Source of the DNA: Cyanidioschyzon merolae
Taxonomy: Eukaryota
Length of the DNA: 64,000 nucleotides
Assembly: GCA_000091205.1 (NCBI GenBank)
Contig: AP006498.2
Direction: 5' to 3' (one strand)
Shown piece by piece: positions 83 to 55,088 of this stretch. The notes below the pieces were generated by a model that made no database searches, was not told the DNA's origin, and saw only the letters and a list, made by a program, of their open reading frames with translations. Numbering within the stretch: the first letter of the stretch is position 1; the number at the start of each line of letters is the position of its first letter. Both the position numbers and the translations under genes were made by a program.

Positions 83-1153
83 TTGGCCCGCCTCCAGTCA
101 AGCGCGCGCGCCAATTCGGCAGCGATTCGAAACCGACGCGACGACGCCCGGGCGCTGAGGTGCAATCGTTTTTTCTCGAACGTGAGAAGGCCGTTGCAAG
201 TAACCGCTTCTGTGGGGTGCGCTCGTTCCTCGAACCACATAACGCCTAGACTTGGAATACTTTCAGAAGACAATTTATTCCTAGGAACTGTCTTGCATAT
301 AACATCGTGCTTGTGGAGAGGTTGCGGCGCTACATGGGCGTTTTGTATGGAGCAGCAGAGCCAAAGACCAAGCGACGCCAGCGCCTGGGAGCGAGGAACG
401 CCACAACCTGAAACGAGCCCGCGTGCCGATCTGGCGTCATTGAGGCACGCAGAGGGATATGCAGAAGATCCCTTGTTGTCTACGGAGTTCATCGGTGAGA
501 TCGACGTGGACCAGTTGGTTGCCGAACTGGAGAGCCAGGCGCCACAGCTTCTATCTCAAGGGGGAGGCTTTTTCGCGGAAAGCTCGTTTGGTGAAAGCAC
601 CCGAGGCGCGCCTGAGGCGAGAGAAGTTCCCGGCATACAGCGCGGTACAGTCGCGCCCGCTTATGTGGAAAGGAGCGTTTCTGGTGGCGTCGGTAACGCT
701 GCTGCCTCAACCGGCGCCAGGCGTTACAGCAGTGGCTCCGCAGCAAGCGCCAGCACCAGAGCTGTTGGCCTTGAGACGGCCGAGGTCAGCTCGTTTGAGG
801 TGAGCTCGCTCGGCAAGCGACCTAGTGCGCTGGGCAGCCCATTCTTGCATCGGAGTCGCAGCCTCACGGCAAGTATGGCTGCAGCTGCTGCCGCCGCCGC
901 CGCTGGAGTCGGCTCAAGCGCTGAGTTTCGCCAACAGTTCGAGGAGCGGCTACGCAAGCTTGAGCAAGACTACATGGAACTATGTCGATATGTGAATGAG
1001 ATCCAGGCCAACGTGGCCATAGAAAGACATGTGGAACTCCATCGTTTACAGCGAGATAATGCCGAGCTCGCGGCGCTGAACCGCCGCCTGGCCGAGGAAC
1101 TCGCTCGTATGCAGAAGCGCCTCCAGGAGGGTCACGGCGGAGCCCAGTCGTGA
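83..1153 (+). CDS. hypothetical Ala-rich protein with C-terminal coiled-coil (may start upstream of window or at a later Met)
   Basis: 356-aa ORF; heptad-like C-terminus EERLRKLEQDYMELCRYVNEIQANVAIERHVELHRLQRDNAELAALNRRLAEELARMQKRLQ; poly-Ala tract; no recognisable enzyme family. Confidence 0.3.
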   Translation: MARLQSSARANSAAIRNRRDDARALRCNRFFSNVRRPLQVTASVGCARSSNHITPRLGILSEDNLFLGTVLHITSCLWRGCGATWAFCMEQQSQRPSDASAWERGTPQPETSPRADLASLRHAEGYAEDPLLSTEFIGEIDVDQLVAELESQAPQLLSQGGGFFAESSFGESTRGAPEAREVPGIQRGTVAPAYVERSVSGGVGNAAASTGARRYSSGSAASASTRAVGLETAEVSSFEVSSLGKRPSALGSPFLHRSRSLTASMAAAAAAAAAGVGSSAEFRQQFEERLRKLEQDYMELCRYVNEIQANVAIERHVELHRLQRDNAELAALNRRLAEELARMQKRLQEGHGGAQS

Positions 1154-2119
1154 ACGCGAGCCCCTATTTATACGAACAGGCTGGGATTCCATTGCCGCGG
1201 TTGCCGTCATTGCCATACGTGCACGTGTTTGGGCATGGTAATGCGCTGGAAGGCAAACATGCATTTAAAGAGTGTTTGACAAAACATCACTGCAAAGAAA
1301 GTACTGCCAAAGGCGATTCAGCCAGAGACTCCATGCGCATTGCAGCGTTCGTGTCTTGAGCGGTATGGAGTGCGCTGCCCGCTTTCCAAGACGAACACGC
1401 CTCCGAGTGCGCCGGTGGCTTTCCGCAACTTCAAGCGACACTGTGCTGCCAGAGACGTTGCGCCCAAGATATTAAAAAACAAGGAGCGCAAACGATGTCG
1501 AACGCGCCAACGACCAAGTGCAGTAATCCAGCGTTGAGGCGCTACCCTCTCGAAAAACGGCGACTCGTTGGGAAGCCACCAGCAAAACAACCCTTCTTTG
1601 CGCTCATCCCCGAGGCAATACCTTCTTGCCACGTGACCCGAACGTCGTGCACAGGTCTCAGGTTGCGCTATGCGCCGCTGCAGCTCCTCTACACGGGTAG
1701 CAGCCGTCGTGCACCAGTGTCGCAACCCAGTCCCCTGGGCGACGTTTTCCGCTCTGTCTCACCGCCGTGTCAGCCGCGTGTCAGCTTCGGTGCGCACAGC
1801 TGCTGACCATCACACCCATACATATGCGACTCGAAAGCACTAGGTTGCTTCTATCCCGGGCCCATGAAGCATAACCGCTCTGGCATGCACACCCAGTGCA
1901 CACTGCCGCTCCAGTAGATGCGGCAATTGCATCGATGATGAGCTTGGACTGCTGCTGCAAGGGCGCGCACGACCTCGACGACGACGACGACGACGACAAC
2001 AACCACGCCCGTCGTGGCGTTCGGCTTAGGGCTTTGGGAGCTACCTGTCGTGAGCACGCTACATGCCTAAAGCTTGCAAGGTTTACCGACACTTTTCAGG
2101 TCCTTGATTCGGTGCAACC

Positions 2120-3052
2120 ATGTTCATCTCGTATAGTGTCAGCAGCTTGTGGCGAGTGAGCGATTATGACACGAGCTTCGTGTCATCAACGGGTCCACGC
2201 GCCCCAAATAACGAACGGCAACGGCGGGTAAGCACACGTCCATTTGCGCAGAACTTGCGTCTGGCAGAGGAACCAGTCTGGGATCGCAGACAACTTATGA
2301 AGCAAGCTGGAGTTCTGCTTGAGTTGCTGGCGATAAGCTCTGTTGCATCAGCCAAGGCAGCACAAGTTGCAGACAATCCGCCGACACAGCACACCAGCTG
2401 CCGAGCGGGGACTCCGTTCGCGAAAGTGACCGATAAAGCTCGTTTCGTAGTGCAAATAGGTACAACTAGTGGAAGCGAGCGGCTACCTCTTGTTATAGGG
2501 CTCTTCGGCACCGAGGCGCCTGAAGCGGTCGAGCGTTTCAAGCAACTCGTGGAACAGCGACTGGTGCATCACGGCCGACAACTCGGCTATTCGTATACAA
2601 CGGCGTCGCGCATCATACCTAACCAAAGGATTGAACTGGGTCGTATATCGCAACTGGAGGACTTGGCAACAGCTGATGGTGTCCCACTTCGCCCGAGGAT
2701 GCTGCTCTCCCCGGGGACCCGGGATCGTAACGCACTCCGGCATCGATGTGCTGGGACTGTATCGATTCCGCATGAGCCGGGACGCGGTTTCGAGTTTTGC
2801 ATTCTACCTGTTGATGTATCCGATGAGCATGCATTTGTTCAGGAGCTCGATGCGGAAAATGTTGTCATTGGCTGCGTGATCCAGGGTATGGATACCGTGC
2901 GCCAGCTCAACGAGATTCCAGTGAGTCGACCTACCCCGCGTGACATGCTGCGGCGAGTGGGGCAGGCCCTGGGCGACGTGCGTGCTCGCCAGGATCCAAC
3001 GTGGCGACCGCTGCGTAAAGTACGCATCCTGGAATGCTCCTTAATTCCCTAA
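2120..3052 (+). CDS. divergent cyclophilin-type PPIase-like domain protein (TLP40/CYP38-like pattern)
   Basis: 310-aa ORF; LFGTEAPEAVERFKQLV resembles the cyclophilin ELYG..AP.TVENF segment; GTVSIPHEPGRGFEFCIL resembles G.LSMAN.GPNTNGSQFFIT; VIGCVIQGMDTVRQLNEI resembles VFGRVVEGMDVV; N-terminal extension could be a targeting peptide. Confidence 0.45.
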   Translation: MFISYSVSSLWRVSDYDTSFVSSTGPRAPNNERQRRVSTRPFAQNLRLAEEPVWDRRQLMKQAGVLLELLAISSVASAKAAQVADNPPTQHTSCRAGTPFAKVTDKARFVVQIGTTSGSERLPLVIGLFGTEAPEAVERFKQLVEQRLVHHGRQLGYSYTTASRIIPNQRIELGRISQLEDLATADGVPLRPRMLLSPGTRDRNALRHRCAGTVSIPHEPGRGFEFCILPVDVSDEHAFVQELDAENVVIGCVIQGMDTVRQLNEIPVSRPTPRDMLRRVGQALGDVRARQDPTWRPLRKVRILECSLIP

Positions 3053-4328
3053 GGGATTTGAAGAGATATGGTGATCTCGATTCACAGTGAGCGCGTCCAT
3101 GCATCCTGCTCAGCAAGGCACAGAGGATCTGGGCATTCGAATCTGCGCCAAATGATGGGAGAACAGCTCTTTCGGAGGGAGGACGTCCATGCTCGTGTAT
3201 GCACAGCTTCGATATCTGCTTCCATTTCCCTGAGGAGGGAGGATGCAAATTCAGGAACTTGTCCAAGACGCCGGGTGACGGCTTTATATGAGCGACGGCG
3301 TCGTTGTTTTTGCCTGTGTACATGTTGCGTGGATTCTTCTCCTCTAACGAGTAACAGAGCCTTGGTTGTTCGTCTTCCAAGGTGTTTGTTTAGCAAGCGA
3401 TACGTCTCGCAGAGGAACAGGAACGCAGTCTATATACAAATATGGGGTCAGTGGGAGTCTTCGTGAACCAGCAAGTCGTAAACATGAGACTCGTTTCATG
3501 CTACATGAAACAACGAGTCGATAGTTCGACACAGGGGAAACTTGGATCGTGCATAATTCACTGGAGAACTGAGTGTCAGGAACCGTCCTTTTTCAAGAAC
3601 CGTCTAGGGCAAGGCGGGAAGCGCAAGGGTGCGCTGCGTCCAAGGGCCTCGCGCAACTGGCGGCTGTCCCCCAGTGCCGACGAGGCAGCGATATGCCCCG
3701 ATACCATCTCAAAGTATATTGGAGCTCTGAAAACTCTTGCATATGAAATAGCTCGGGATTCAATCTCTCAACGCCAAGGCGGTATCCAGGTCAACAATGC
3801 ACCCGTCATCCGATCCGTTTATTGCCGGCAAACTGAAACGCGTCGCTTCGCCTGCGAAACGCTACCGCGAAGCTCGCTATGCACTGTCGGCATCCGACGA
3901 GTGACCGACGCGTCAAAAAACGCTCTTCGGGTGACACCTCCTTTTCATGGAACCAACCTGTCCGAGAGAAAGTTTCGGAGTACGGTCGCTTACGGCCTTG
4001 TCCTGGACCGCAGTAGACCCGGTGAAGCGGCACAAGTCAACAGCGCGTACTCCTTGCGCTCATCAGTTCTTGCACTATGTATACTTGGACACAGTGAGCG
4101 CACCCGCTCCGCCAGGGAACCGCAACGAACGTCCATACCTATTTTATGCAGCAGCTGGAAGCCTATGCGTGGGCTCGAACTGAGCCCACACACATCAGCT
4201 GTGAATCCCTCTGGCAGTCGGTCCGCTGACGCTCGTAAGCGGAGACCGCTCCACAGGCACTCAACAGGCCTGATGTCGGCAAATCACAGCCTACCTTTAA
4301 CCGTGCAAGTGACTAGCGCCACGGAACA

Positions 4329-7300
4329 ATGACGTGCAGTTGGGGACAGGTCGCACCCAGCGGCGCTCTTGCCTCAGCGCGAACGTCTAGCAGGTGCACT
4401 CGACTGCCCGTGTTCCAGTGGTGTGCGCAAGAGCCCGCTGCATTGAGCCTAGAGACACCGCCAAAAACCCTCTTTCGTATCACTGGCCCATATCCTGCTT
4501 GGGAGAGAGAGCGCATTCCTCTCGTCTGGCGTACGTGCAGCGGCAGCGGAAAGTGCCTACCCCAAAATACCGCTGCCGCCGTGGTTGCTTCCGCGACTCA
4601 CAACCTCAAGGCCTTCAAACGTTCTGGTTCCCTCGCGCGTCGGCTACGGCTCCTACGACTGTGTCTGCTGACGCAGCCTCTTACGGAAAACGTGCTCTGT
4701 CTTCCGCTCATGTCCGTGGAGGATGTGTCGGACATCGTTTTCGAAGAGGAGAAGCTGAAGTTTGTACAACTCGGCCGCCTCGCTGAACCTTCCATCCGAG
4801 CAGAGGCGGTGCAAAAACCCCGAGGTGTGCTCGATCTCGGAAAGTCTCTGGAAGCAGCTGCGCCAACAGCACCAACAGATGAGCTCTCGGAACGACACTA
4901 CCTCTGGCAGAACCATTGTGTAGTTGCAGCACCGTTGAATGTACTCCTTTTGGCCACTGAGGACCGTCTGGTTCGCCTGCCACTGGCAGAGACGCTTGCT
5001 GCCGCCCAGCAGTACCAGAAACCAGAGCTACTGCGGGAGAACCCGTTTCCCGAATGGGACGAGACCCTACCGGGCAAGAGTGGCCCAGCGAGCACCGTTC
5101 GTTCTGCTCCGTTTGATACGAACACGTTCGGTGCAGTCTGCGACTTGCAGGTAAACGTGGACCTGGCTGTTGTCGCTGTGAATACGACTCGGGGGCGGGT
5201 TCTCCTGTACACGCTCTCCGACTTGCGCTTGGCACGAGTGCTGCCAGATGCGTTTGATCGCTTATGGTGCTGGATACCGGAGACGCCGGCGGGTGCCGTG
5301 CTCACGAGACGAGCGGACCGTTGCGCAGCTGTGGTAGCAGACATCGTCGAAGCATCGACCAAAGCCCAAGTACTCGATGTACCCGCGGTACAGACACTCG
5401 TCATGGTTCCGGGGAGCAATGTTGTGCTGTGCCTCGTGTTCAAGAATCATCAGTGGAGCTGCGTTCGTCTCAGGGTGCGTAGCCAGAGCGTATCAGACGC
5501 TACAAACGTCACAGTGGATTCGCTGGACACGACCGTCTTGCAGACTGCAGGAAAGTTGCAGGCCATCTGCCGAATGACGCCTTTGAATGCCTCCGAGTTC
5601 ATCATCGCGTACACGGAGCAGGACAGTCTACTTGTGTCTCCGGATACGATCCAGTTCGCTCTGGTGCGTCTCGCTGGAGTCGAAACGTCCCTGCGCGGCA
5701 CGCCCGAAGCATCCCAGGTGACATCGTTTCGCGCCCCGCACTGGATCACTTTCGGAGAAGTCTGTCCCATTTTGTTGGATGATGAGGAGGATAGGAGCCG
5801 CTGGTTCACTTTCCTGGTGGCGCTCCCCGGATGGGGTCTTTGTGTGTGCGCGTTGGCACCTAGCGATGAACTGGAGCTTTTGGGAGATAGCCGCTTTCAA
5901 GAATCCGTGCCAGCTTGGCGTATTTTGCGTCCGCCTGACGCGTACCGAGCACAGTTACCCGCTTTCGAGAACAGTGAGTATGTGCGGATTCTCGGCATGG
6001 ATGTGTTCTACCGAAAGAGCAGTGCGAGCGGGGACACACCCAGCGCTGAGGTTTTCGAGCCACTCCTTGTCGTCTTTACGAACAACGGACTTGTACATTG
6101 GTTTTGTCTCCAGGGACGGGAGCGTTGTGCTGAGCGTCCCCCTCGAGAAAAAACATGGGCTCGTGCACCCTTCTCGAAACGCTTGCTTACGTTGCCGCCG
6201 GCCACGACGACGACTTTGGAACTGCGTGAATCTGCATTGGACGATGTTGCGGCATCGCGGCGAGTCCCTGCTGCTGCGGACGTTGCCACGAGTACCGGTA
6301 CGGCCACTAGGGCTCCTAGAGATGTTGCCACTGCCACCGGAACTGAAGGCGCTACTACCCGGACTGGTACGCATGCGACTGCCGCATGGAACCAAGCACC
6401 CCCGCGGATGGAAATGTCGCTATCCGAATCCACGTCAGGAGCGCTCCCTGAGCAAGGCAGACATCAGATAGATCCGGAACGTTCCGTTTTAGGCTCTAGA
6501 CAAGAGACGGAGTACCTGAAGCATTCAGCGGAACACCGCACGCATTTTTCGAGCGAAGCCAGCCGAGCGGAACAGCACCAGCTCGTGAAATCCATCCTGC
6601 AGCTTGGTGTCACGGACACAGAGGCGGTACCAGTTCCCGACGCAGATATCCGTCATGACGATGAACAAAACATATTGAAACAAATTCGTGAACAACAGCG
6701 ATTCATGCTGCGACAGATGTGGGCGACCGTGGATCAGTTCGCACGGCTGGTTGACTTGTTTTCCGATCAAGTCGAGGAACAATCGTCTCGAATGGACGCT
6801 TCGCCACAGCACGCCGCCCAGACGGCGTCGACACGCTCGCTACAGAGCCTCAGTGAACAAATTCATGACATTCTGAAACAGAGCAACGAATGTCTTGATC
6901 AGTGTGCGGCATCCATAGGGCTTGTCTGGAAACAGGTGGCACCGCTCGAGCGTCAAGTTCAGCTGATGCAGCGGGAAGCTACCTTATCGGTTGCGTCCAC
7001 GGACTCGGACCTTGCACTCGATTCCTCGACCAGGCGGTTCCTTCAACACGTGCACCAGATTGAACGTCAGGCGGAACGAGTGCAGGAGATGGTGGACCAC
7101 CTTGAACGCCTCCTGAGGAGTAGGCACGGGGGCGCGAGTTTGTCATCACACCAACGGACTCTGTCATCAACCGGCGTCACGGAAGCGATGGGACAATTAC
7201 GATACCAATACGGGGAACGGCTGCGGCAGCTGTACGAGACGCTCTTCCGATGCAGCGTAGCCACTGCGCAAGCGGAGCAAGCATGGGAAGCCCTTGCAGC

Positions 7301-11595: not shown

Positions 11596-11930
11596 CAGAC
11601 AATCAGAATGTCCGTCTCGTTCTATAAACTACTGGTATGAACGTCTCTGCGAGTCGCTTGTCGTCAGGATGTCCGTCTCTTTCCATAAAATACAGGTATG
11701 GCAAGTTTCTACTTGCCGCTTGTCGTCAGAATGTCCGTCTCTTTCCATAAAATACAGGTATGGCAAGTTTCTACTTGCCGCTTGTCGTCAGAATGTCCGT
11801 CTCTTTCCATAAAATACAGGTATGGCAAGTTTCTACTTGCCGCTTGTCGTCAGAATGTCCGTCTCTTTCCATAAAATACAGGTATGGCAAGTTTCTACTT
11901 GCCGCTTGTCGTCAGAATGTCCGTTTATTC
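11596..11930. repeat. tandem minisatellite, 5.3 copies of a 61-62-bp unit GTCCGTCTCTTTCCATAAAATACAGGTATGGCAAGTTTCTACTTGCCGCTTGTCGTCAGAAT; first unit diverged in its middle
   Basis: units start at 11610, 11671, 11733, 11795, 11857 with partial copies at both flanks; copies 2-5 identical; each unit contains a perfect 7-bp stem / 4-nt loop hairpin GGCAAGT-TTCT-ACTTGCC. Confidence 0.9.
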
Positions 11931-12421: not shown

Positions 12422-13690
12422 CTAGGCCTGCGCGTTTGCCTGCTTGTCTAGCGGTTTCCGGGCGACAATAAAAAACGAGGGTGTAAAAATTCCCAGCTTT
12501 CCGGCCGCGATAAGGTCTCTAGCTCCATCCATGAGCGTTCGACTCATTTTCGCGCTGCCTCTAGGCGCGATGCGCACCGTCTCCAGTGCGGAGACCAGCG
12601 CGTGCGTCATATAGTGCCCCAAACGCGTGTGGCGAAAGCCGCTCCAATGGAAAGCGTTTTCACCACTCAGTGGCGTGTACCAGGGCTTGATGCTGAGCGT
12701 CGTGGCATCGTAGGCGTCCTCGATTTGAAACCCAACTTGTCGCATAGCGTTGACGATTTCTTCTGTTTTCATCAAATCCGGAATGCCGTTCCCGATCTCG
12801 ATACCAAACTTGAGCCGCTGGTGTTCCGAAGCAGCGGCATCGAAGCGATCCGTAAGCGCCCATTCGTAACCGACAAAACGAGCGCCTGGCTTCAGGACCC
12901 GGAAGACTTCACCGTAGGTTTTCAGCTTGTCGGGACTGTGACAGGTGGCTTCGATCTGATACGCACCGTCTTTTGAATTTTCTTCAAAGGGAAGGTTATT
13001 AAAGTCGGCTTTGATTATCGTGCACTGATCCATGAGACCATCGTCCTCGATATACCGAAGGCCACGAAGAATCTGGTAGTCACAGATATTCACGCCGACA
13101 ATCTGGCAGCGTGCGAAGCGAGCAATATTCCGAAGCGGGCCTCCGACTCCACAGCCAAGGTCAATCACCGCAGCCCCAGGGTCCAGCTTGAGCCGTAGAG
13201 CAATCGTGTACTCGTATCGGCGCGTGGCTTCCCGAAACGTCTCATCTGGCCCGTAGACTGCAAAGTGGAAGCTTGGACCCCAACCCCACTCGTAAAAGTC
13301 TGTTGCAATATCGTACATGCCGTTGCTTAACTCTTTATAGCGGCGTTTGCGCAGCGCGATATCCTCTGCGGAGCCAGAGCCGCGCGCAAACAAGGTCAGG
13401 TACTCTCTAAGCTCCTCCTCAGTAGATTTTCCAGTCGTTTTCGTGTGCCCTCTGCGACCTACAACTGGCAGGAAACGGAACAAGAACTCCCAAAAGTTCG
13501 CCGCAGCGTCCGCGCTCTTCGCCGTAGCCAGCTGCCAAAGGCCGCCGTCCTTTCGAATGGGCACCTTTAGCAACGTGAACCGGCGGTTTCTCGCGCTTTG
13601 GCGAGCACCTGTCCCTTTCCTAATGCTCTCGCGTGCTCCAGGTGTACTGTCCTTTGTTCTCTTGGTCATTTTCGTACGTAGCGCTACCAA
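12422..13690 (-). CDS. SMT1: sterol 24-C-methyltransferase (SMT1/ERG6 family, SAM-dependent)
   Basis: 422-aa ORF; YEYTIALRLKLDPGAAVIDLGCGVGGPLRNIARFARCQIVGVNICDYQI (SAM motif I LDxGCGxGGP), YQIEATCHSPDKLKTYGEVFRVLKPGARFVGYEW and C-terminal sterol-MT region; N-terminal about 60 aa are Arg/Lys-rich and may not be translated. Confidence 0.8.
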   Translation of the reverse strand: MVALRTKMTKRTKDSTPGARESIRKGTGARQSARNRRFTLLKVPIRKDGGLWQLATAKSADAAANFWEFLFRFLPVVGRRGHTKTTGKSTEEELREYLTLFARGSGSAEDIALRKRRYKELSNGMYDIATDFYEWGWGPSFHFAVYGPDETFREATRRYEYTIALRLKLDPGAAVIDLGCGVGGPLRNIARFARCQIVGVNICDYQILRGLRYIEDDGLMDQCTIIKADFNNLPFEENSKDGAYQIEATCHSPDKLKTYGEVFRVLKPGARFVGYEWALTDRFDAAASEHQRLKFGIEIGNGIPDLMKTEEIVNAMRQVGFQIEDAYDATTLSIKPWYTPLSGENAFHWSGFRHTRLGHYMTHALVSALETVRIAPRGSAKMSRTLMDGARDLIAAGKLGIFTPSFFIVARKPLDKQANAQA

Positions 13691-13829
13691 CGCGAAGCCC
13701 TGCAGCGCTGTGGGCCACGCCGCACAGAGCGCCTATTGGTGTGCGCCGCTCGCTCAAATCCTGCTCCGCCGATCGCTCTATCAACGTCTGGCGTACAAGC
13801 AACGTCCCAAGTTGATCCATCCATCTATG

Positions 13830-15300
13830 TATTTATACTCAGCAAAACGGATATCTTTCTAGGACCATAGAGTGTGTATAGAAACCTACTGACAGACGCC
13901 CCGTAGCATCAATGGACCCATGGGCTGCAATCAGCTTAAGTTTATACCTGCACACTTCGTGCATCAAAGGCTGCGTCGCAAAATTCACTCGTGTCTGCTC
14001 CGCGAGTCTCGTCTTCAGCACCGCTTTCCGTCTGACATTGATGGCGGTGTAAAAGTCCCAGTTCACGAATTCCATGCGTTTATCGCCTCTGGTGAAACGG
14101 ACGTATGCAAGGATGCCTCGAAATCATACCCTCCGTGCCACTAGTCTCGTGGATCTCTCCTCTTCTTCCTCACCTACTCTTCTTCGCACGACGGTCGGCG
14201 AGAAAAGGATCTTTTTCGTTATTTTTCCGGGAGCCGGCGACACCGGGCCTCCAGTATCCTCGATTTCCATGTACATAACTTTTCCTTGATTCTTTTATTT
14301 CTTCAAATAAATGCAGTTCTTTGTGCCCGTAGATAAGGAACTTCCCGGAGGGAGTGGGACTTGCGGAAGAGAGCCGAAACGTGTCCCGGTGTGTCATTGT
14401 GTGCCGAACGCTTTCGTGATTCGCCCAGTGGAGTGATCGTCACGTTTCACGATACAAAACGCTCCTTCGATGTGGTTGAGTCAAGTCGCGTACTGAGGAG
14501 TGAAAGGCGGCTCTACTCCGATAGAATCGGCAATAGCTCGAACACATGGGTAATGGTGAAATGCAACGTCGTCGAATGGACGGACGTCACCAGACTTCAG
14601 CGAGAAGTCTTCAATGATTCGACGAACTGTGTTCTGTTGTATATGCCTTCCCCAGGAGCGAAACGGAGACCTCCAAATGAGTCCACATCAGCAAGAACAG
14701 ATGATGTCCTCGTTCTGTTGGGGATCGATCGGACATACGACGATCCGCCCCTCCGCGAATACCCATGTACCATCCGACAGTTTCATCCGAATCAAGTCTC
14801 ATTGACTCAAAAAACAAACCAAAGTCCCTGTGCTTCACATCGATCGTGGCGTTCCAGGAACGCTGTAGGTGCAAATTCTGTGGAAGATGGCGGTGATTGA
14901 ACTAGGACTCTTTTTTGCGATTAGATTCCAGTGATCTCAGGATCCGCACCATCAAGCTGTTGAGAATCAGAGATGCCGGTTGCGGCTACTATGGTCGCTT
15001 TTGTTGCTCGTAAGTAGTTCATGTTGAAACCATTGACCGAAAGCAGTATCTGATATTACCATTTTTTGGCGCGGAGCGCAGATACTTGTTTCACTCAGTA
15101 TTCCTCAAGCATTTGAGTACTGTGTCAAGACTCACCTGAAGGAAGAATGTTGTCCTTCTTGCACGATTCAGTAAAGAATATATCCTGCAAACAAGTCGTC
15201 GACGATGCATACGGCATGTAGCATCATGATGTCGATCTACTGCTACACACTGAGAAGGAGCATTCGATGACACAGACACCAGAGATGGAACGTAACTGAG
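13830..15300 (-). mobile_element. decayed Fanzor (TnpB-like) element copy with multiple frameshifts/stops; 3' tail (right end) at about 13830
   Basis: minus-strand peptides MEFVNWDFYTAINVRRKAVLKTRLAEQTRVNFATQPLM (RuvC-III region and conserved tail), KSYVHGNRGYW (compare [11 protein letters not shown] of the intact copy) and ETVGWYMGIRGG (RuvC-I region); nucleotide homology of about 70-80% with 44160-45600 along about 1.4 kb. Confidence 0.6.
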
Positions 15301-15612
15301 ATGAAAGACGATAACACCGTATTCGATACAGAACTATAACATAAGGGTCAATGTGGACACATTTTCTAAGTGACCTACATGAACTCTGGGGCTGTCGCCT
15401 AACTTTCATAACCGCAAACTCTTCGCGTGGTTTCCAGTGCTCGCTGCTGCGTCTCCACCACACTGCCCTGTAACCTAGTAGTTGCAGTGGAGGCTGCCGG
15501 TGTGGAGAAGCAAACGGGCTGTATACCGTGAACGTGACAGCGAGCGGCGAGTCTTCCTAGAACGTTCCTGTTCGCTGGCCGGGAGTGTAAACCTGCACCG
15601 GGCCTCGCCATC

Positions 15613-18139: not shown

Positions 18140-18280
18140 GCTGGAATGCGCACCTAATCGGAGAACGCTGGCCCAAGTAAACGTTTTGTCAATGAAAAAA
18201 AAGCTGGAATGCGCACCTAATCGGAGAACGCTGGCCCAAGTAAACGTTTTGTCAATGAAAAAAAAAGCTGGAATGCGCAG
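18140..18280. repeat. direct tandem duplication, 2.2 copies of a 63-64-bp unit GCTGGAATGCGCACCTAATCGGAGAACGCTGGCCCAAGTAAACGTTTTGTCAATGAAAAAAAA
   Basis: unit starts at 18140, 18203, 18267 (third truncated); about 150-300 bp upstream of the ACBP start codon. Confidence 0.85.
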
Positions 18281-19133
18281 GCGCTCTGCATTCGCCAAAT
18301 GCGATCGTGCGGTGCCTGCTTCCGCTGCTGCTTCTCGCGCATTCGGGCCCTGGGCAGTGCCTCGTACATTCGTCGATACTGTACCACACGAGTCGATCCG
18401 GCTGCATCAGAGAGCAGCAGCTTTAGCGGGATACGAGTTTTGGTCGAAGGTAGGTCGTTTAGATTCAAGGAGCTCATGATGTGGAGTTTTGAAGTGAATA
18501 GCGCCCGCGACATCACCCGAGTCGATGCAATCTGCTTTCGCTGATGCGGGAGACGGAGTATTTCCGATCACAAAACGTTTACGTTGACCATGTATCCCAG
18601 ATTGCGGAGTGGTTACTGGTTTTCGGGAAAGCGTTCATTATAACGCAACCTACCTTCAAGTTCTATGGCCTGTTCTCAGATATTCTGGTCGTTTTGTTCG
18701 TTCTATTATGCGCCGAGTTCCTGTCTTACTGCACCCGCCGTGGCGCTTATGCCGTTGAGGCAGATGCTTCACGGAGCTGAATAGCATTGCCATATCACTA
18801 GCGGCTTCGGTTCGAGGCATGATTCATTCGACATGGAGTCGGGCTATATGATTATCCTGGGAGCCTGCAAGCTGCGCAAACAGGCCGACAGTCTGCGACA
18901 GCGTGAAGCGATAAGCTGGGAGTCCATTGCGACCAGGGCGACGCCCAGATGTAGCGTTCCAGTCCCAGTTCCAGAATGAACTGCATTGCGGGCGAGTTGC
19001 TTGGATCTCCCTACAGCTTTAGCTACTGAGGGGTGAATGAAGCACGAGCCTAGGGGACATTCTTGGACATATCAAGGATCCGTACGAGCAGGAATTTCGA
19101 GAGGCCATCAGAAACCGTTTCGCGTCCCACTCC

Positions 19134-21017
19134 ATGAGTATTAAAAAGGCTTCTTCAGAACTAATGCATATGGTGAAGGAGATTTATCGCGACATGACTG
19201 ACATCATAACAGTGGAGGTTCCGGAAGAATTTTGGAACAGGAACTTTATTCGTCACCTGATGCCTGGCACATGGGAAACGTCAAAGAGAGATGAACTCGT
19301 GCGTGCGTTCCACGAGGGTCGCGCCGAATTCCGCTTCAAGGGTACTCGATACAGGGGCGATAGGGATATTTACGACTATGGGGCTATGAAGTATCTCACG
19401 AACCTGAAGAACCATTTGACAACCAACCTCGAACGTTTCATAATAAGAGCCGTATTTGCGCTCTGCCCGGGCATCTCTCGCAAAGGGATATGGGCGATTA
19501 TCAATGACATCACGAACGATCGCAAGCATGAAGATGGGGTCGAATTCGTCGACAAGAAGGAGTCAAACGAGAGCACGAATGAAGCTTCTGTGATCCGTGC
19601 GGTTGTACAAGAGCACCGTGCAGTCGTGGGGCTGGCGAATCCGCCAGAAAAGATATCAGAGTTGAAAAAAGATAAGGAAAGATACGATCGCCTCGTCCTG
19701 CGCTATTTCCTGTTTTTGGACCGAGAACTCGAACGCAAGGCGGAGATGAAACTGAGTGAGGAAAGCAATGAAGAGTGGGAGAGACAGAAGGCTTTCCTAG
19801 TGGGTAAGCGCTTCAATGGCGTTCTGTTGTGCAACATAAAGTCACATTTCGTGAGTATCGACTCCGGAGTCCTCTAAGGCATCATGAAGGAGATCTGTCC
19901 GGAGTTCGATGTCAGCAGGGAGGAATTCACCGGCGAAACCCGTCCGACGTACTGGAAGAGTATCTTCGATTTCAAACGTCTCAAAGTGAGCAGGCAAAAG
20001 TTGTTCACTGGGATAATCGAAACCGATGGAGTAGCCATGTCTGTAAACTATCGGCTGTTGAAGAAAGATCGTCCAGTTCCGCCCTCGGCTTCGCCAGTGA
20101 CGAAGGATGAAGAAAAGGAGGAGGCCGGTCCTGCGACACAGGATGTGCAGGATAACGACCTTGTCGTTGGCGCGGCGAAGGATGAAGATGAGGAGGAGGC
20201 GGGTCCTGCGACGCACAAAGTGCAAGATAACGACTTTGCCGTTGGCGCGGACCCCGGAAACACAAATATCATCACCATGGCAGTACCCAAGCGTGTGGAA
20301 GATGGCGCTGACGGCAACTTACGTCAGAAAGACATGCGTTTGTTGAGATTCTCGAGAGCGAGACACTATCGAGAATCGGGAATCATGAATGCGAGGAAGA
20401 AAATCGAGACTTGGAATGCTGGAATAAAGGACCACTTGGAAGCTATGAGCGAGGTGACGAGCCGAGGAGCGGGCTTTCAAGCTTTCCGGAAATTTATGAA
20501 AGTTCGCGTTGCTCACTGGGATGCGCTGTGGGAAGAATATACAAAGCCTCGGTGGGCTCGTCTGCGTATGAATCTATACTGTGGGAAGCAGCGGGCGTTC
20601 GCGAACTTTTTCAATCAGTTGAGCGCCCTGAAGGAGGATGAAAGTCAGAGGCTCGTCGTAGCATACGGAGCAGGGCGCTGGAAGACCCAAAAAGGGTGTA
20701 CGCCAGCTCCAACTACAAGAACGTACAAGGAGTGTGCACGGCGTTTCGTTACGATACCTGTAGATGAGTTTCGAACATCGTATACACACCACGAGCTGGG
20801 TTGTACACTTCAGAGAGTGGAGATGGAAAAGTGCCAGAGGAGCCCTGAGGAAATCGCAAAGTACGCACCGCTGACGGAGAAGCAAATGGAAAGGATGGCG
20901 AAAGGTCGACGACTACTTGCATTAGTAAGTACAACCAATGATAGCAAGAAACGTATGGAGTTCGTGAACCGAAACTTTAACGCCGCTATCAATATAAGGA
21001 GATGTGTGGCGCTGTAG
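19134..21017 (+). CDS. Fanzor-like RuvC nuclease (TnpB homolog); two track ORFs (19134..19877 and 19884..21017) are in the same frame and separated only by one TAA
   Basis: Ruv[19 protein letters not shown] (GxDPG with catalytic Asp), Cys/His cluster [20 protein letters not shown], Ruv[22 protein letters not shown] at the C-terminus (TnpB/Cas12 RDxNAAxNI class); total about 625-660 aa; in-frame extension upstream to 19041. Confidence 0.7.
20118..20264 (+). repeat. internal tandem duplication (2 x about 72 bp) within the Fanzor ORF immediately N-terminal to and including RuvC-I
   Basis: [24 protein letters not shown] / [24 protein letters not shown]; DNA units gaggaggccggtcctgcgacacaggatgtgcaggataacgaccttgtcgttggcgcgg... 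and gaggaggaggcgggtcctgcgacgcacaaagtgcaagataacgactttgccgttggcgcgg... Confidence 0.75.
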
Positions 21018-21326
21018 AAAAGACCCTCCAGAGTTGAGAGAATTTCGTGGGACAACCTCTCAAAGTGGAACTATATGAGAAAAAGTTGAGAGAAGTAGTA
21101 GGTGGCCGGTCCAAAAAAGGGGAGGCGTCTGCACGTCAGTTGGCGACTTCGTGTCTAGGGCGCATTCGCCGCCACTACTGTACACCGCTGGCGACTGCTT
21201 TCGACTTTTGAAAGGCGTTCGCTGTCGCTGCCATGTGCTTCCGCAAAACCGCCTCCTCTGAACGGCCTCGACATCCGCTTTCGCAATAAAAGGCTCCGCG
21301 GGGTTTCCAATTGCTAAAACACGAGC

Positions 21327-22514: not shown

Positions 22515-22895
22515 CATATTGTGAGTAAACCAGAAAATGTTCCACGGATACTGGGGGTAGATTCATACCCACCAATAGAAACATCCGAGCATTTATGGAC
22601 TGGCCGCCTGCTTTCGGCATCAGCTTCTCCTTATAAAAGCATCAGAGGCTGCATCATGATTTTAGATCGCCTCAGGTCTTCAAGTCTGTTCTTCAGTGCC
22701 GCAAATCGTCTGATATCTATGCTCGCGTTACAGTCTCGTTTCACAAACTCTAGGCGTTTATTGCCACTGGTTGAACTCATGATTGCAAGCATTGCTAGCA
22801 CTGGTGCCGTCAACCACTCTACAGTTTCGTCTGTCGCTCATCTTCTCCTTTTCCCATTTCTTCGTTATTTGCTCTTCTTCGCTCCATGTTCGGCG
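22515..22895 (-). mobile_element. Fanzor 3'-terminal fragment A (C-terminal about 110 codons with frameshift plus conserved tail), inverted relative to fragment B
   Basis: minus-strand peptide AMLAIMSSTSGNKRLEFVKRDCNASIDIRRFAALKNRLEDLRRSKIMMQPLMLL (RDxNAxxNIRR); tail ...GGAACATTTTCTGGTTTACTCACAATA ends about 22515. Confidence 0.65.
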
Positions 22896-23245
22896 AGAAG
22901 AGCTATTTGCCCGACGACACAATGATGAGCCTGTCGTGGCACTGAGGTCGCGAGTTCTAGCAATCCTTGCATATCTGCGTTCAACCAGAGGCAATAAACG
23001 CATGAATTCAGTGAACCGAGGCGTCGACGCCAGCATCAATATCAGACGAGTTGCAGTGCTAAAGACGAGCCCCCAGGAGCTGACGCGAGCCAACGCTGTC
23101 CGGCAACCTCTGATACTCCAGGTATTCCGGGAGAAACGGAAGCCGATAGCATTCGACCGCTCCATAAATGCCACGAGACGTCTCCAAGTGGATATACCAT
23201 GCATCCCCATGATTGGGGAATGTTTTTCGTTTTATCGTTATTGCC
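22895..23245 (+). mobile_element. Fanzor 3'-terminal fragment B, forms a palindrome with fragment A
   Basis: peptide RSRVLAILAYLRSTRGNKRMNSVNRGVDASINIRRVAVLKTSPQELTRANAVRQPLILQ; conserved tail to about 23245; about 70-75% nucleotide identity to the reverse complement of fragment A. Confidence 0.65.
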
Positions 23246-44159: not shown

Positions 44160-45600
44160 GCTGGTCGACGATTATTGTTCGTGAAACAAAAAATGTCCCA
44201 CGACTATGAAGGGTAAAATGAATACCCGAGTGCAGATGCCTCCCAGCCGTTTCTTGACCAGCCGCCTGCTAACGACATCAGCTTCTCGTTATGATAGCAT
44301 CGGAAGCCGCCGGACGAGGGTCGCTCGCGTGAGCTCCTCGGGTCTCGTCGTCAGCACCTGGCATTGTCCGATATTGATAGCAGCATTCAAGTCTCGGTTC
44401 GCGAACTCCCCGCGTGCATTGGCGCTGGCTGAAGTCATCAATGCAAGGATTCCTCGAACTCGTGTCCTCGGTGCCATTTGGTGCTCGGCCAGCGCTCCGT
44501 ACCATTCTGTCGCCGAAGCGCTGCGCGGCCTTCTCTCCATCTCGACGTTCTGAAGTGACCACCCCAGGTCATCCAATAGATTATGTATTTCTTGCATATA
44601 AATGCTCTTGTTTCTGTCCTTAGGTGAGGACGTTCCCGAAGGGAGACGGATTTGCGGAAGCAAGACCAGATGTACCCTGGTGCCGCCATGTGCTTAGCGC
44701 TTTAGCGATTCAACTAGTGGAGCGATCATTACGTTTCATGGTAATAACACTCCTTCGATGGGGTTCAGCTGCAGGTTGTACTGATGCATGAAAACCAGCT
44801 CTTCCCCGATAGAATCAGCAAATGCTCGGACGCGAGGGATGTGCTCAAATGCCTCGTGGTACAATAGAAGCAAGTCGCGAAACGTTACACGAAAAGTCTT
44901 TTATTTATCGACAAAGTGGTTGCTGCTGATATATGAGCGTTTTCTACGTGCGAAACTAAGACAGCCAAATGAATTCTCTATAGCTAATACAGCTGATGTC
45001 GTCGTTCTCTTCGGGATCGTTGATATAGTCAGCCGGCTCCCTGATCCGCGAATACCCACAAACGTTCCGACAGTTTCATTCGAAGCAATTCTCATCAACT
45101 AGAGAAAAAAACCAACGTCCCTTGGCTTCGTATCGATTCCGACGTTCCAGAAACGCTGTAGGTGCAATTTCTGTGGAAGGTGGCCGTGCGTGATCTACGA
45201 CTCTTTTTTGCGACTGAATCCTAGTGTTTACGGGACCGCACGAACGAGCTGTTGCGAAACAGAGAAGCCTGTGGCGGTTACGATCGCCGCTTTTGCTATT
45301 TGCGTAAGATGCTCAACCGGTCCTTTTCTACCATTGACCACAAGCACGCTTTAAGAATACAATTCTCTGCCCAAGGCGCGTATACTTGTTTCGTTCTGTG
45401 TTCCTCAACCATCTGAGTACTGTGGTATAACTGTGCTTATGGAGGAATGCAGACCTCTTCGCACTGCTCAGTAACGAATGCATCCTACAGGCAAGTCACC
45501 CACGATCTGTTCAAAACATAACATCATGACTTCGATCACCTGCGATAACCTGCAAAAAGAGCATTCGGTAACACGCAGGCGTGGTTGAGTAAAATTGAGT
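44160..45600 (-). mobile_element. decayed Fanzor (TnpB-like) element copy 2; RuvC-I Asp replaced; conserved 3' tail ends about 44180
   Basis: minus-strand peptides LQNVEMERRPRSASATEWYGALAEHQMAPRTRVRGILALMTSASANARGEFANRDLNAAINIGQC (RuvC-III), ETVGTFVGIRGSGSRLTISTIPKR (RuvC-I with D to I); tail GAGAAGCTGATG..GGCGGCTGGTCAAGAAACGG..GGGACATTTTTTGTTTCACGAACAATAATC. Confidence 0.65.
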
Positions 45601-46377
45601 TTCCAGAATATGACTAGTGCTGAGCATGCGATAACCGCCCCAGTGCATCCCTGAACCTTCAGCGGCATCTGCAAGGTGGTGTTTCTCTTTGGATGTCAGA
45701 TCTGACTCAGCGCCGGTCAAATGTGCAGCATTGATATGGACGCCGTGTCGAGTCCCCGCAGCTGGATGGATGAACTGAATGATCTCATGACGAGAACTTG
45801 CCATGTCTTTCAAAATTCGACGAGAGGACACATTTTTGCGACTTTGGGTCCTGTCACGCTCCTGGGCACTTCTACGAGCCGTCATCGTCACTGACATTGC
45901 ACCGTAAACATCACAGAGACATACGCTGTGCTTGTGGCGCTGGTCAATTCCACCGATGGTACGGGGGCCGAAGACCAAAGCTCCTCGCTTGCAGCGGATC
46001 TTTGGGAAATCGGTAGGACGATGAGGGTCTCTGTGTTTTCGCGATAATATGATGAACGCTGCGATATCAAAAAGCAGCGCACTGTAGTCGTCAACCAGTT
46101 GCCCGGGAAAGTCGTTTCTGGTGTATGCATGCGGCTTCCCAGGCTCGCTGTATCGCTGATTGATCCAGACGAGTGGCTTGTTCCCGGCAGCGACGAAGAG
46201 AGGCACAGCATCGATCTCAGCTGCGTAGTCTTCGAACGCTTTTGAGCGATGAAAAACGATACTGTCTACGATCAGGACAGAATAATTTACGAAGCAGTAC
46301 CCACGACCTGCTTCGACGGAATGATGGCATGTTGAAGGAGCTTGGCCATTCAGTGATTTGCAGGCGACCACACACAA
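45511..46377 (-). CDS. endonuclease/exonuclease/phosphatase (EEP, ExoIII/APE-like fold) family protein
   Basis: 288-aa ORF; C-terminal motif order and spacing typical of EEP: GVHINAAH (GDxN-like) about 85 aa from the end, WGGYRMLSTSHIL (RxDYxL-like) about 45 aa from the end, AGDRSHDVMF (SDHxP-like) at the end; CKSLNGQ near N-terminus; N-terminal motifs weak. Confidence 0.4.
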   Translation of the reverse strand: MCVVACKSLNGQAPSTCHHSVEAGRGYCFVNYSVLIVDSIVFHRSKAFEDYAAEIDAVPLFVAAGNKPLVWINQRYSEPGKPHAYTRNDFPGQLVDDYSALLFDIAAFIILSRKHRDPHRPTDFPKIRCKRGALVFGPRTIGGIDQRHKHSVCLCDVYGAMSVTMTARRSAQERDRTQSRKNVSSRRILKDMASSRHEIIQFIHPAAGTRHGVHINAAHLTGAESDLTSKEKHHLADAAEGSGMHWGGYRMLSTSHILETQFYSTTPACYRMLFLQVIAGDRSHDVMF

Positions 46378-53371: not shown

Positions 53372-55088
53372 ATGGAGGAATATGATGATGTGAATGACCG
53401 ATCACAATTGATATATAAATGCATTGGCGGGTGATGCGCGTTGGCGACATCGCGGCAGCCGAGGCAGCTGGCACCGACCGCGTTGTGACGCAGGCGTTCG
53501 TGATCGCGCTGCGCAGCGGTCTAGTGCGGGCGACTTCCTGAAGTCGTGCTTCCGGTCTCCCGGGTACGACACTGCACCCATCGGGCCGGTTTGCTGTGAG
53601 AGCGCAGCTCTGGACACGGTGGACCGTGGAAATCATCCGAGAAATGGGTACGTTTGAAACCTAAGTGACTGAGAGTGCTCGCAATCGCACGAAATCCCTG
53701 TTAGATCCATCGATCATGTGGGGAGGAATTCCCTCAGTCATTCGAGACTGGGCGGCATCCGCGGTGCGTTCCACCAGCGCAGCGCTATCGGGCTTTCGCA
53801 CGAGTCGACGCGCTCAGCTTCTGCATAACCGGTTTTTCTTGGAGTTGAATCACTTGAACGAACTGGGATTCCCCGGGTATGCCATTTGTGTTGGAAACCT
53901 GTGAAGAGACCGGGTTGCCTTTGAGGCATCTCAACGTTCCGCAGGTCGCATACCAGTGCATCCATCGGGATCTGCGCCTAGACTGATCTAGCGCTTTCCC
54001 TCGTATGCTGAGTCTGTATCCGAAACTGGCTGTGGCGCCAGCATTTTTCTTTTTTGTTTCACAGAAAGCTAACTTAGAGCAGATATGCCTGCGATGACGC
54101 TATCTCATACCCGCACCCAGAAAAGCGTCCGCCACGTATCCAAGCACCGCTTCCCATATTTGCCCGCGAAGATACACATCATTTCCTCCGTTCCACTCTG
54201 TGGCGAGTCTGTCGTGATCCCCATCAATGACACCTATCGCGCCGGTGTGCATGCAGCAAGGATACGAGACGCGTTTACCGTAACACTACGAGCGTCTGCT
54301 CGAGATCTCCGCTCCATAACGAATCATGATAATGATGATATATGTCAGTCAAACGAAAGCGTTTCACGACCGTTGCTAACGAATATATCCCCAAACGCGC
54401 AAACGGCTCCCAGCCTTTTTCGCCCGATCGACTGGTATCGTTTTCAGATTTTATCCCTGCAGAGTTCGAGCCTGAAAGACCGCCCTATAAAGTTCGCTCG
54501 CCTCAGCTCCCCAGGTCTGATCATTAGCACCACACATCGTCTGATGCTGTGTGAAGTCTTGGTTCGGGAACTCCATGCGTATATTCCCGCATGTTGAACT
54601 CATGTTTGCAAGAATTGCTCGAACACGTACCCTCTGTGTCACAAGAATCTTGTCATCGCCCCGTGGGGCAAATACCTTCTATCGTCTATCTCTCCATATT
54701 TTTTTATTCTGATTCTTCGTTCGAAAGTCGGCGAGATGAGGGTTTTTTTTCGTTTTTCCGGCAGCTGGTGATCACGTCCCCGCAGGATCCTCGCCTTTTC
54801 CGTCCATACATTTCCCTCGGATTTTTATTTCTTCGAATCAGCGCACGTCATACATACTTCCTATGAAAAGTAAAAAAGCATTTGATGACACTTACCTGGT
54901 TATGGAACACCCTTTAGTTGAGGCATTACCATCATGGTACACTTGTCAGGAAACAATGCCCCTGTCTCATGCAAATGCAGACGCCTATTGCGCGTCGAAT
55001 CTGCGTCTGCGACTGCTGCGTCGATTGCGCAGTTTTCGAACACGAGCGCTCGCCCCCAGTGCCTCTATTCGAGCGTTAAACTCGGGTT

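Follow-up and report, generated by a model that had tools for sequence, protein, structure and literature searches.

A 64-kb stretch of the Cyanidioschyzon merolae genome (64,000 nt of contig AP006498.2, here called the window) raises the question of what the ~1.4-kb piece of DNA is that lies between the gene for sterol 24-C-methyltransferase (SMT) and the divergently oriented gene for an organellar-type ribosomal protein L2 (rpL2). An earlier note had read this piece as a decayed copy of a Fanzor gene in the 5' flank of SMT. We conclude that the piece, which spans 13835-15267 on the minus strand, is most probably a ~1.43-kb dead, nonautonomous, internally deleted relic of CMe-1, the Fanzor1 family of C. 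merolae. The note's derivation from a Fanzor1-bearing element therefore stands, but its full-length gene decayed in place does not. We refer to the relic as copy A and to related pieces in the window as copy B (44200-45568, minus strand), the 19-kb copy (18565-21217, plus strand), the 54-kb copy (54394-54898, minus strand), the 22.7 fragment (22637-22834, minus strand), and the 22.9 fragment (22927-23193, plus strand).

Fanzor1 and Fanzor2 were defined by Bao and Jurka (2013, Mob DNA 4:12; PMC3627910), who described a single Fanzor1 family in C. merolae, CMe-1A, with a 3169-bp consensus and a 734-amino-acid (aa) open reading frame (ORF). According to the same authors, the genome holds ~150 old copies, each ~80% identical to the consensus. 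These lack terminal inverted repeats (TIRs), and their target site duplications (TSDs) are not determinable; bases 1-635 are identical to a separate repeat, TE-N2_CMe; and CMe-1 has no associated transposase gene (PMC3627910). We aligned the consensus, taken from their supplementary file 2, to the window and used its translation as the CMe-1 protein. The translated signature, D431 (VGADPGNT), T606-S607, H610/H611/C615/C625, and R671-D672 (FVNRDFNAAINI), fits the Fanzor1/TnpB motif D-X(125,275)-[TS][TS]-X-X-[C4 Zn finger]-X(5,50)-RD published in that paper (PMC3627910). As a second probe, we used a hidden Markov model (HMM) of the family, built as a profile from 36 metagenome sequences homologous to the ORF in the 19-kb copy. 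General resources added little: Pfam returned nothing informative for the Fanzor ORFs and their metagenome homologues (PF26935/DUF8286 appeared only as a weak precomputed label), PDB sequence searches with a single ORF and with a 30-sequence profile gave no match, and AlphaFold2 run on the family alignment, which is too shallow, reached a mean predicted local distance difference test score of 38.6.

When positions 13701-15500 were compared with the window by blastn, the strongest matches were to copy B. Positions 14296-15273 aligned with 44586-45574 at 70.6% identity over 1000 nt (E=8e-123), and positions 13985-14140 aligned with 44321-44476 at 72% (E=3e-15). Global alignment with MAFFT shows the homology to begin abruptly at 15267 in A and 45568 in B and to fade near 13840 and 44200, respectively, and the Smith-Waterman score of the pair was 374 against a shuffle mean of 12.7 (z=316). 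The ~1.4 kb of nucleotide homology to 44160-45600 that had been proposed is thereby borne out. Weaker blastn matches of the 13.9- to 14.3-kb part fell at 22936-23183, 22639-22792, 54450-54838, and 20949-20993, and the family HMM also matched 3'-end fragments at 22643-22831 (minus), 22942-23193 (plus), 44313-44573 (minus), and 54450-54639 (minus). The similarity to the 19-kb copy that the earlier note also expected was found in the last ~45-250 nt of the coding sequence (CDS) and does not extend over the whole length. Against the CMe-1A consensus, copy A matched by blastn in two places only, consensus positions 881-969 and 2833-2997, and Fanzor-element sequence makes up ~470 bp out of ~1430 bp. 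Its parts, in 5'-to-3' order on the minus strand, and its counterpart in copy B are as follows.

14308-15267, minus strand: module X, ~960-970 bp, common only to A and B (counterpart in B, 44586-45568), with a sharp 5' boundary at 15267 in A and 45568 in B.
14212-14307, minus strand: end of the CMe-1 5' untranslated region (UTR), ATG at 14276-14274, and first codons; consensus 881-969, 83.3% over 96 nt, E=4.9e-21 (blastn).
14130-14276, minus strand: remnant of CMe-1 aa 1-48, MYMEIEDTGGPVSPAPGKITKKILFSPTVVRRRVGEEEEERSTRLVARR; 45% identity, frame -3 (tblastn).
14124-14126, minus strand: the single in-frame stop (TGA) of the fused mini-ORF, from three-frame translation.
13881-14141, minus strand: remnant of CMe-1 aa 643-730, RuvC-III and C-terminal tail; E=1.4e-13, 48% identity, frame -3 (tblastn).
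13835-13880, minus strand: 3' noncoding tail, with the 3' end of the element placed to within +/-10 nt, from an alignment of six 3' ends in the window and one metagenome copy.
44200-45568, minus strand: copy B, the only paralogue of X, with X joined directly to consensus 2737-2971 (aa 612-698).

The 3' part of copy A is Fanzor sequence by several measures. Positions 14140-13979 match consensus 2833-2997 at 70.9% (E=1e-16, blastn), and the family HMM matches 14123-13881 with E=2.9e-17, in agreement with the tblastn match listed above; the assignment of this peptide to the RuvC-III region and tail was thus correct. The peptide MEFVNWDFYTAINVRRKAVLKTRLAEQTRVNFATQPLM at 14075-13962 (minus strand) is a homologue of the Fanzor1 C terminus, and MEFVNWDFYTAINV likewise represents genuine Fanzor homology according to the family HMM. 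The RuvC-III motif itself is degenerate, reading FVNWDFYTAINV where the consensus has FVNRDFNAAINI, with the D kept, R changed to W, and N changed to Y. tblastn recovered the N-terminal remnant with E=0.001 when the whole window was searched and with E=4e-07 when the search was confined to the region; by our own reading, its basic tail resembles a nuclear localization signal. Nothing in copy A corresponds to aa 49-642, including RuvC-I D431, T606-S607, and the His/Cys region, in either the tblastn or the family HMM search. These codons encode WED/REC, RuvC-I D431, the VDEFRTS motif, and the His/Cys zinc-finger-like region, that is, all catalytic and structural motifs except RuvC-III, and because they are missing, copy A cannot encode a nuclease.

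Two further peptides had been put forward as remnants of the missing part. KSYVHGNRGYW, offered as a trace of the Cys/His region, proved to be a +1-frame reading of the start-codon region (AAAGTTATGTACATGGAAATCGAGGATACTGG), which in the correct frame gives MYMEIEDTGGPVSPAPGK and matches CMe-1 aa 1-48, MEKEVEDPGGPVSPAAGKK. The supposed RuvC-I remnant, ETVGWYMGIRGG, lies at ~14783-14750 within module X, ~480 nt upstream of the ATG; it has R in place of D and found no support from tblastn or from the HMM at maximum sensitivity. Nor are the remnants spread over three frames with stops, as had been stated, since one frame, broken by one stop, covers the entire Fanzor-derived part (14276-13842).

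Copy B retains a different portion of the element. Its CMe-1 part matches consensus 2737-2971 at 73.2% over 235 nt (E=4.6e-34, blastn; E=1.7e-21 with the CMe-1 protein by tblastn). It keeps part of the [TS][TS]/Zn-finger region, from aa 612 onward, and lacks the N-terminal piece present in A. As A and B each hold sequence that the other lacks, neither is derived from the other. Directly upstream of copy B lies a 288-aa ORF (45511-46377, minus strand) with no Pfam match, the last ~57 nt of which overlap the 5' edge of X. The 54-kb copy has the same fusion of N and C terminus as A, lacks X, and lies ~190 bp upstream of a plus-strand gene starting at 55089. Just after the ATG, it also carries the A-specific sequence, by which these two copies differ from the CMe-1A consensus.

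Module X resembles nothing else that we compared it with. Against consensus 1-900, which includes the TE-N2_CMe module, Smith-Waterman scores did not rise above those of shuffled sequences (z=1.2 for A and 0.1 for B) and blastn found no match; against consensus 901-2800, the values were 1.7 and -0.5, with both strands of CMe-1A checked. Because X has no homology to the CMe-1A 5' region, the 5' two-thirds of copy A does not belong to the CMe-1A subfamily. With all filters off, the family HMM detected nothing further upstream of 14123 in A, nor further upstream in B, even on frameshift-corrected translations, and the CMe-1 protein gave no tblastn match in 14300-15270. Pfam searches of the X ORFs on both strands and an Rfam search of the region yielded no match, and the frameshift-corrected translations of A and B had no homologue at E<=1e-3 in a collection of 5.8 billion proteins. 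Substitutions between A and B in X showed no codon periodicity in any ungapped block (p=0.19-0.85); as a positive control, the 19-kb copy compared with the consensus gave 60/58/105 mismatches at codon positions 1/2/3 (p=7.5e-5). As far as can be tested, then, X appears to be noncoding. We had also considered X as a very divergent Fanzor N-terminal half, with SSVLADVDSFGGLRFA as RuvC-I and RVRAFADSIGEEL as a further piece of it, and dropped this idea after the HMM searches, the consensus comparison, and the periodicity test.

The 3' end of the element can be placed from its relatives. In the alignment of the six window 3' ends and one metagenome copy, conservation runs ~230 nt past the RuvC-III motif. 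The tail, ATGGTCGTGGAACATTTTCGTTTTACT, is common to the five short copies (A, B, 22.7, 22.9, and 54.5) and unlike that of CMe-1A, and this shared tail sets the 3' end of A at ~13835 (+/-10 nt). The 3' tails yielded no Rfam match, and RNAalifold, applied to these decayed copies, gave 5 pairs, no compensatory change, and -0.81 kcal/mol. A repeat search found no TIRs and no flanking direct repeats at A or B, which agrees with the published description of CMe-1A. The element had been said to end ~140 nt from an SMT start at 13690. Its position in the SMT 5' flank is confirmed, and the distance is right (~144 nt) for the TTG at 13690, an in-frame codon upstream of the SMT ATG that the ORF finder gives as the start; it is ~165 nt, however, for the ATG at 13669, which gives the annotated protein length.

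To date the insertion, we used SMT homologues to locate the syntenic loci of three Cyanidiales: Cyanidiococcus yangmingshanensis (SMT 79% identical) and two metagenome or assembly contigs (87% and 76%). The gene order Sec7-DUF2301-(acyl-CoA-binding protein)-rpL2-SMT is kept in 3/3 relatives, and none of the three loci contains CMe-1 or X DNA by blastn or six-frame HMM search, which makes A, the 19-kb copy, and the 22.7 and 22.9 fragments insertions of the C. merolae lineage. We then compared the window with environmental (metagenome) contigs that are ~99% identical to it. The numbers of differences are small, and their rates are as follows.

Flanking CDS: 0.2-0.4% differences.
SMT-side spacer: 0.6% differences (1/165).
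Fanzor-derived part of A: 0.4-0.85% differences.
Module X: 0.9-1.25% differences.
19-kb copy: 1.4-2.0% differences.
rpL2-side spacer: 2.3-2.6% differences.

Within these small numbers, copy A appears to behave like unconstrained DNA. Codon-position substitution counts in its Fanzor-derived parts were not significant. Judged from its sequence, copy A would do nothing enzymatic, and the locus carries no apparent sign of selection.

The remaining CMe-1 pieces of the window provide the context for copy A. The 19-kb copy is a near-complete CMe-1A element, with 78% identity to consensus 1-492 and 87-89% to 1081-3169; the part in between (493-1080), and with it the start codon, is missing. It has in-frame stops at 19875 and 21015 and carries a D-to-N change in RuvC-III. 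Its third-position bias (p=7.5e-5) suggests that the lineage may have been under selection for some time. A 63-bp tandem repeat (2.2 copies, 18140-18279) lies just upstream of it, and a 75-bp repeat present twice in its Fanzor ORF (20101-20250) encodes an acidic stretch immediately before RuvC-I; the copy number of the 75-bp unit apparently varies, with one in the consensus and several in metagenome homologues. Between the DUF2301 gene and a large Sec7-like gene, the 22.7 (minus) and 22.9 (plus) fragments (aa ~640-728) stand head to head ~100 nt apart and make up an imperfect inverted repeat with arms of ~200-260 nt each; the spacer that holds them measures only 278 bp in L011, one of the three relatives. 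All six CMe-1-related pieces in the 64 kb are intergenic, with divergently transcribed genes flanking A, the 22.7/22.9 pair, and the 54-kb copy. The C. merolae genome is ~16.5 Mb in size, over which the ~150 published copies would amount to ~0.6 per 64 kb; the excess seen here points either to strong local enrichment or to numerous old fragments (65-72% identity) having gone uncounted. An intact-looking CMe-1-type Fanzor gene occurs on metagenome contig L001 (814-2710); genes with a reverse transcriptase domain (RVT_1), which lie on the other strand ~1 kb upstream of it, possibly belong to another mobile element.

How copy A arose can be set out as follows. A longer CMe-1-type element would have carried X as its 5' module, much as CMe-1A carries TE-N2_CMe, and would have given rise to at least two differing internal-deletion derivatives, A and B. 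A single X-bearing ancestor with two internal deletions is the simplest account. In A, the result would read, 5' to 3' on the minus strand, as ~970 bp of X, ~30 nt of 5' UTR, the ATG and codons 1-48, codons 643-730 in the same frame, and ~45 nt of 3' noncoding sequence. Once the C. merolae lineage had split from the other Cyanidiales, this derivative would have inserted into the rpL2-SMT spacer there and drifted neutrally since. We infer that X was an integral 5' module, that the copies were mobilized in trans, and that the active ancestor was a nuclease like SpuFz1. Several observations weigh against parts of this account. The mini-ORF runs for 435 nt without a frameshift at ~30% divergence, which could hint at past selection and not pure decay. 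X is present in two copies only, and a metagenome scan with a conserved 23-base word from it returned six contigs, all orthologues of A or B (98.8-99.7% identical) with no new context for X; its place as a part of the element consequently rests on the X/CMe-1 junction that A and B share, which overlaps the consensus homology by just ~12-20 A/T-rich nt. No full-length Fanzor element bearing X was found.

The same observations bear on the other ways of explaining the locus. If X were instead an independent short transposable element that came to lie beside CMe-1 ghost fragments, by site-preferential insertion or by capture, one would understand why its 3' boundary is the same (+/-10 nt) in A and B and is followed by different CMe-1 segments, and why the 54-kb copy has the CMe-1 parts of A without X; the chimeric CMe-1A, with TE-N2_CMe inside it, is a precedent for such modularity in this genome (Bao and Jurka, PMC3627910). 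Two independent joinings with X in the same position and orientation are nevertheless less parsimonious than a shared ancestor, and a solo X turned up neither in the window nor among the six metagenome matches, so that we regard a composite origin as unlikely, though it deserves consideration. Far less credible is the earlier proposal of a full-length Fanzor ORF decayed in place, with RuvC-I, Cys/His, and RuvC-III remnants collinear over 1.4 kb in three frames, to which we give hardly any weight. In its favor, the three cited peptides roughly follow the order and spacing that RuvC-I, TS/Zn, and RuvC-III have in the 19-kb copy, and B shares the conserved 1 kb upstream, but neither the unfiltered HMM nor tblastn detects anything there, the Cys/His peptide is an out-of-frame reading of sequence homologous to the start-codon region, and X shows no similarity to consensus 901-2800, no codon periodicity, and no database homologue. 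Least probable of all is a segmental duplication, in which A and B would be copies of a host segment that never transposed. The existence of just two known X copies and the lack of TSDs and TIRs would suit it; on the other hand, the homology is sharp-ended with flanks that are not shared, the CMe-1 content inside A and B differs, and both end in CMe-1-type 3' termini common to four other copies.

Whether the relic has been put to use as regulatory DNA depends on its surroundings, for which the relevant features are as follows.

12425-13669, minus strand: SMT, a 415-aa ORF from the ATG at 13669.
13670-13834, minus strand: spacer from the 3' end of the element to the SMT ATG, ~165 nt of host DNA, presumptive SMT core promoter and 5' UTR.
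From 15613, plus strand: rpL2, an ORF for the organellar-type ribosomal protein L2.

The window as a whole has ~55% G+C, a high gene density, and essentially no introns. In length, the 415-aa SMT ORF equals BAM81878.1, the protein annotated in C. merolae 10D, and its identity to P0121 is ~100%. Strain 10D also has exact counterparts of the DUF155 protein (BAM81887.1) and of the acyl-CoA-binding protein (BAM81880.1) encoded in the window. On the 3' side of SMT, a 62-bp tandem array (11603-11924; 5.2 copies, 94% matches) gives megablast matches shifted by 62 bp to metagenome contigs L005-L007 (~99% identical), which suggest a copy number there unlike that in the window. Aligned with the 3' ends of the other copies, the 13670-13834 spacer shows no homology to them. 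In the relative L011, a gene for ribosomal protein L44 (RPL44, eL42; 5209-5658) lies between rpL2 and SMT; the window has no such gene here or anywhere else in its 64 kb, which makes this a local difference in gene order within the Cyanidiales.

A role as promoter, enhancer, or transcription start of SMT or rpL2 would fit the tandem orientation of copy A and SMT, the 3' end ~165 nt from the ATG, the fact that the element fills ~74% of the 1943-bp divergent spacer, and the fixation of the insertion in the ~99%-identical environmental populations. Yet relatives without the insertion retain the rpL2-SMT pair, and on L011 the spacer between SMT and the divergently oriented RPL44 measures 343 bp. 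It follows that the remaining host spacer may well hold the SMT promoter, and the 165-nt and 345-nt host spacers left here may suffice. The element is moreover diverging ~3x faster than the CDS, and neither X nor the Fanzor-derived parts show codon-position bias, which fits drift; exaptation is accordingly very improbable in our estimate, and none of our results favors promoter donation. Somewhat less so, if still a long shot, is the notion that the short copies (A, the 54-kb copy, and the 22.9 fragment) once formed a trans-mobilized "mini-Fanzor" lineage, in which a basic N-terminal tail would have been fused in frame to the RuvC-III/C-terminal tail and a 3' guide RNA region, with X as an alternative 5' module; coupled with this idea is a placement of the relic's 3' end in the SMT promoter or 5' UTR.

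Set beside known systems, an internally deleted CMe-1 relic has several parallels. CMe-1A itself occurs in the same genome, is 83% identical in nucleotide sequence to A in the start-codon region and 71% at the 3' end, and like A has neither TIRs nor recognizable TSDs. Copy A differs from it in lacking consensus 1-880 and ~1050-2800, in having the unrelated ~970-bp X in place of the 5' region that includes TE-N2_CMe, and in a 3' noncoding tail that groups with four other short copies. The closest analogue is provided by the Spu-1 "ghost" elements of Spizellomyces punctatus, 134 ORF-less loci that outnumber the intact copies (Saito et al. 2023, Nature 620:660; PMC10432273). Both are derivatives of a Fanzor1 element that kept the element ends and lost the Fz ORF. 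The Spu-1 ghosts, however, are bounded by 30-nt inverted repeats, of which the C. merolae copies have none, and A differs further in its retained in-frame fusion of N and C terminus and in the extra unrelated module. SpuFz1 has the catalytic residues D383, E541, and D606 (PMC10432273), and by analogy the intact CMe-1 ancestor would have been an omegaRNA-guided RuvC endonuclease whose guide RNA came from the end region of the element. Nonautonomous internal-deletion DNA transposons in general, such as derivatives resembling miniature inverted-repeat transposable elements (MITEs), are like A in keeping the terminal sequences while the central coding region is deleted and, as a family, in showing several independent breakpoints (A and the 54-kb copy versus B). 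CMe-1 differs in having no associated transposase gene, and its copies would have been moved in trans.

For the C. merolae genome, the family was already known, along with its age, its abundance, and the absence of TIRs and TSDs (Bao and Jurka 2013, PMC3627910), and since it was published for this genome in the very paper that defined Fanzor, the significance of copy A is low. What is new is that internal deletions with differing breakpoints have made ghosts of many old copies, that there is at least one alternative 5' module, X, and that, within this syntenic block, the insertions belong to the C. merolae lineage alone. Should SMT transcripts prove to begin inside the relic, the locus would be a small case of a transposon-derived promoter in an extremely compact eukaryotic genome.

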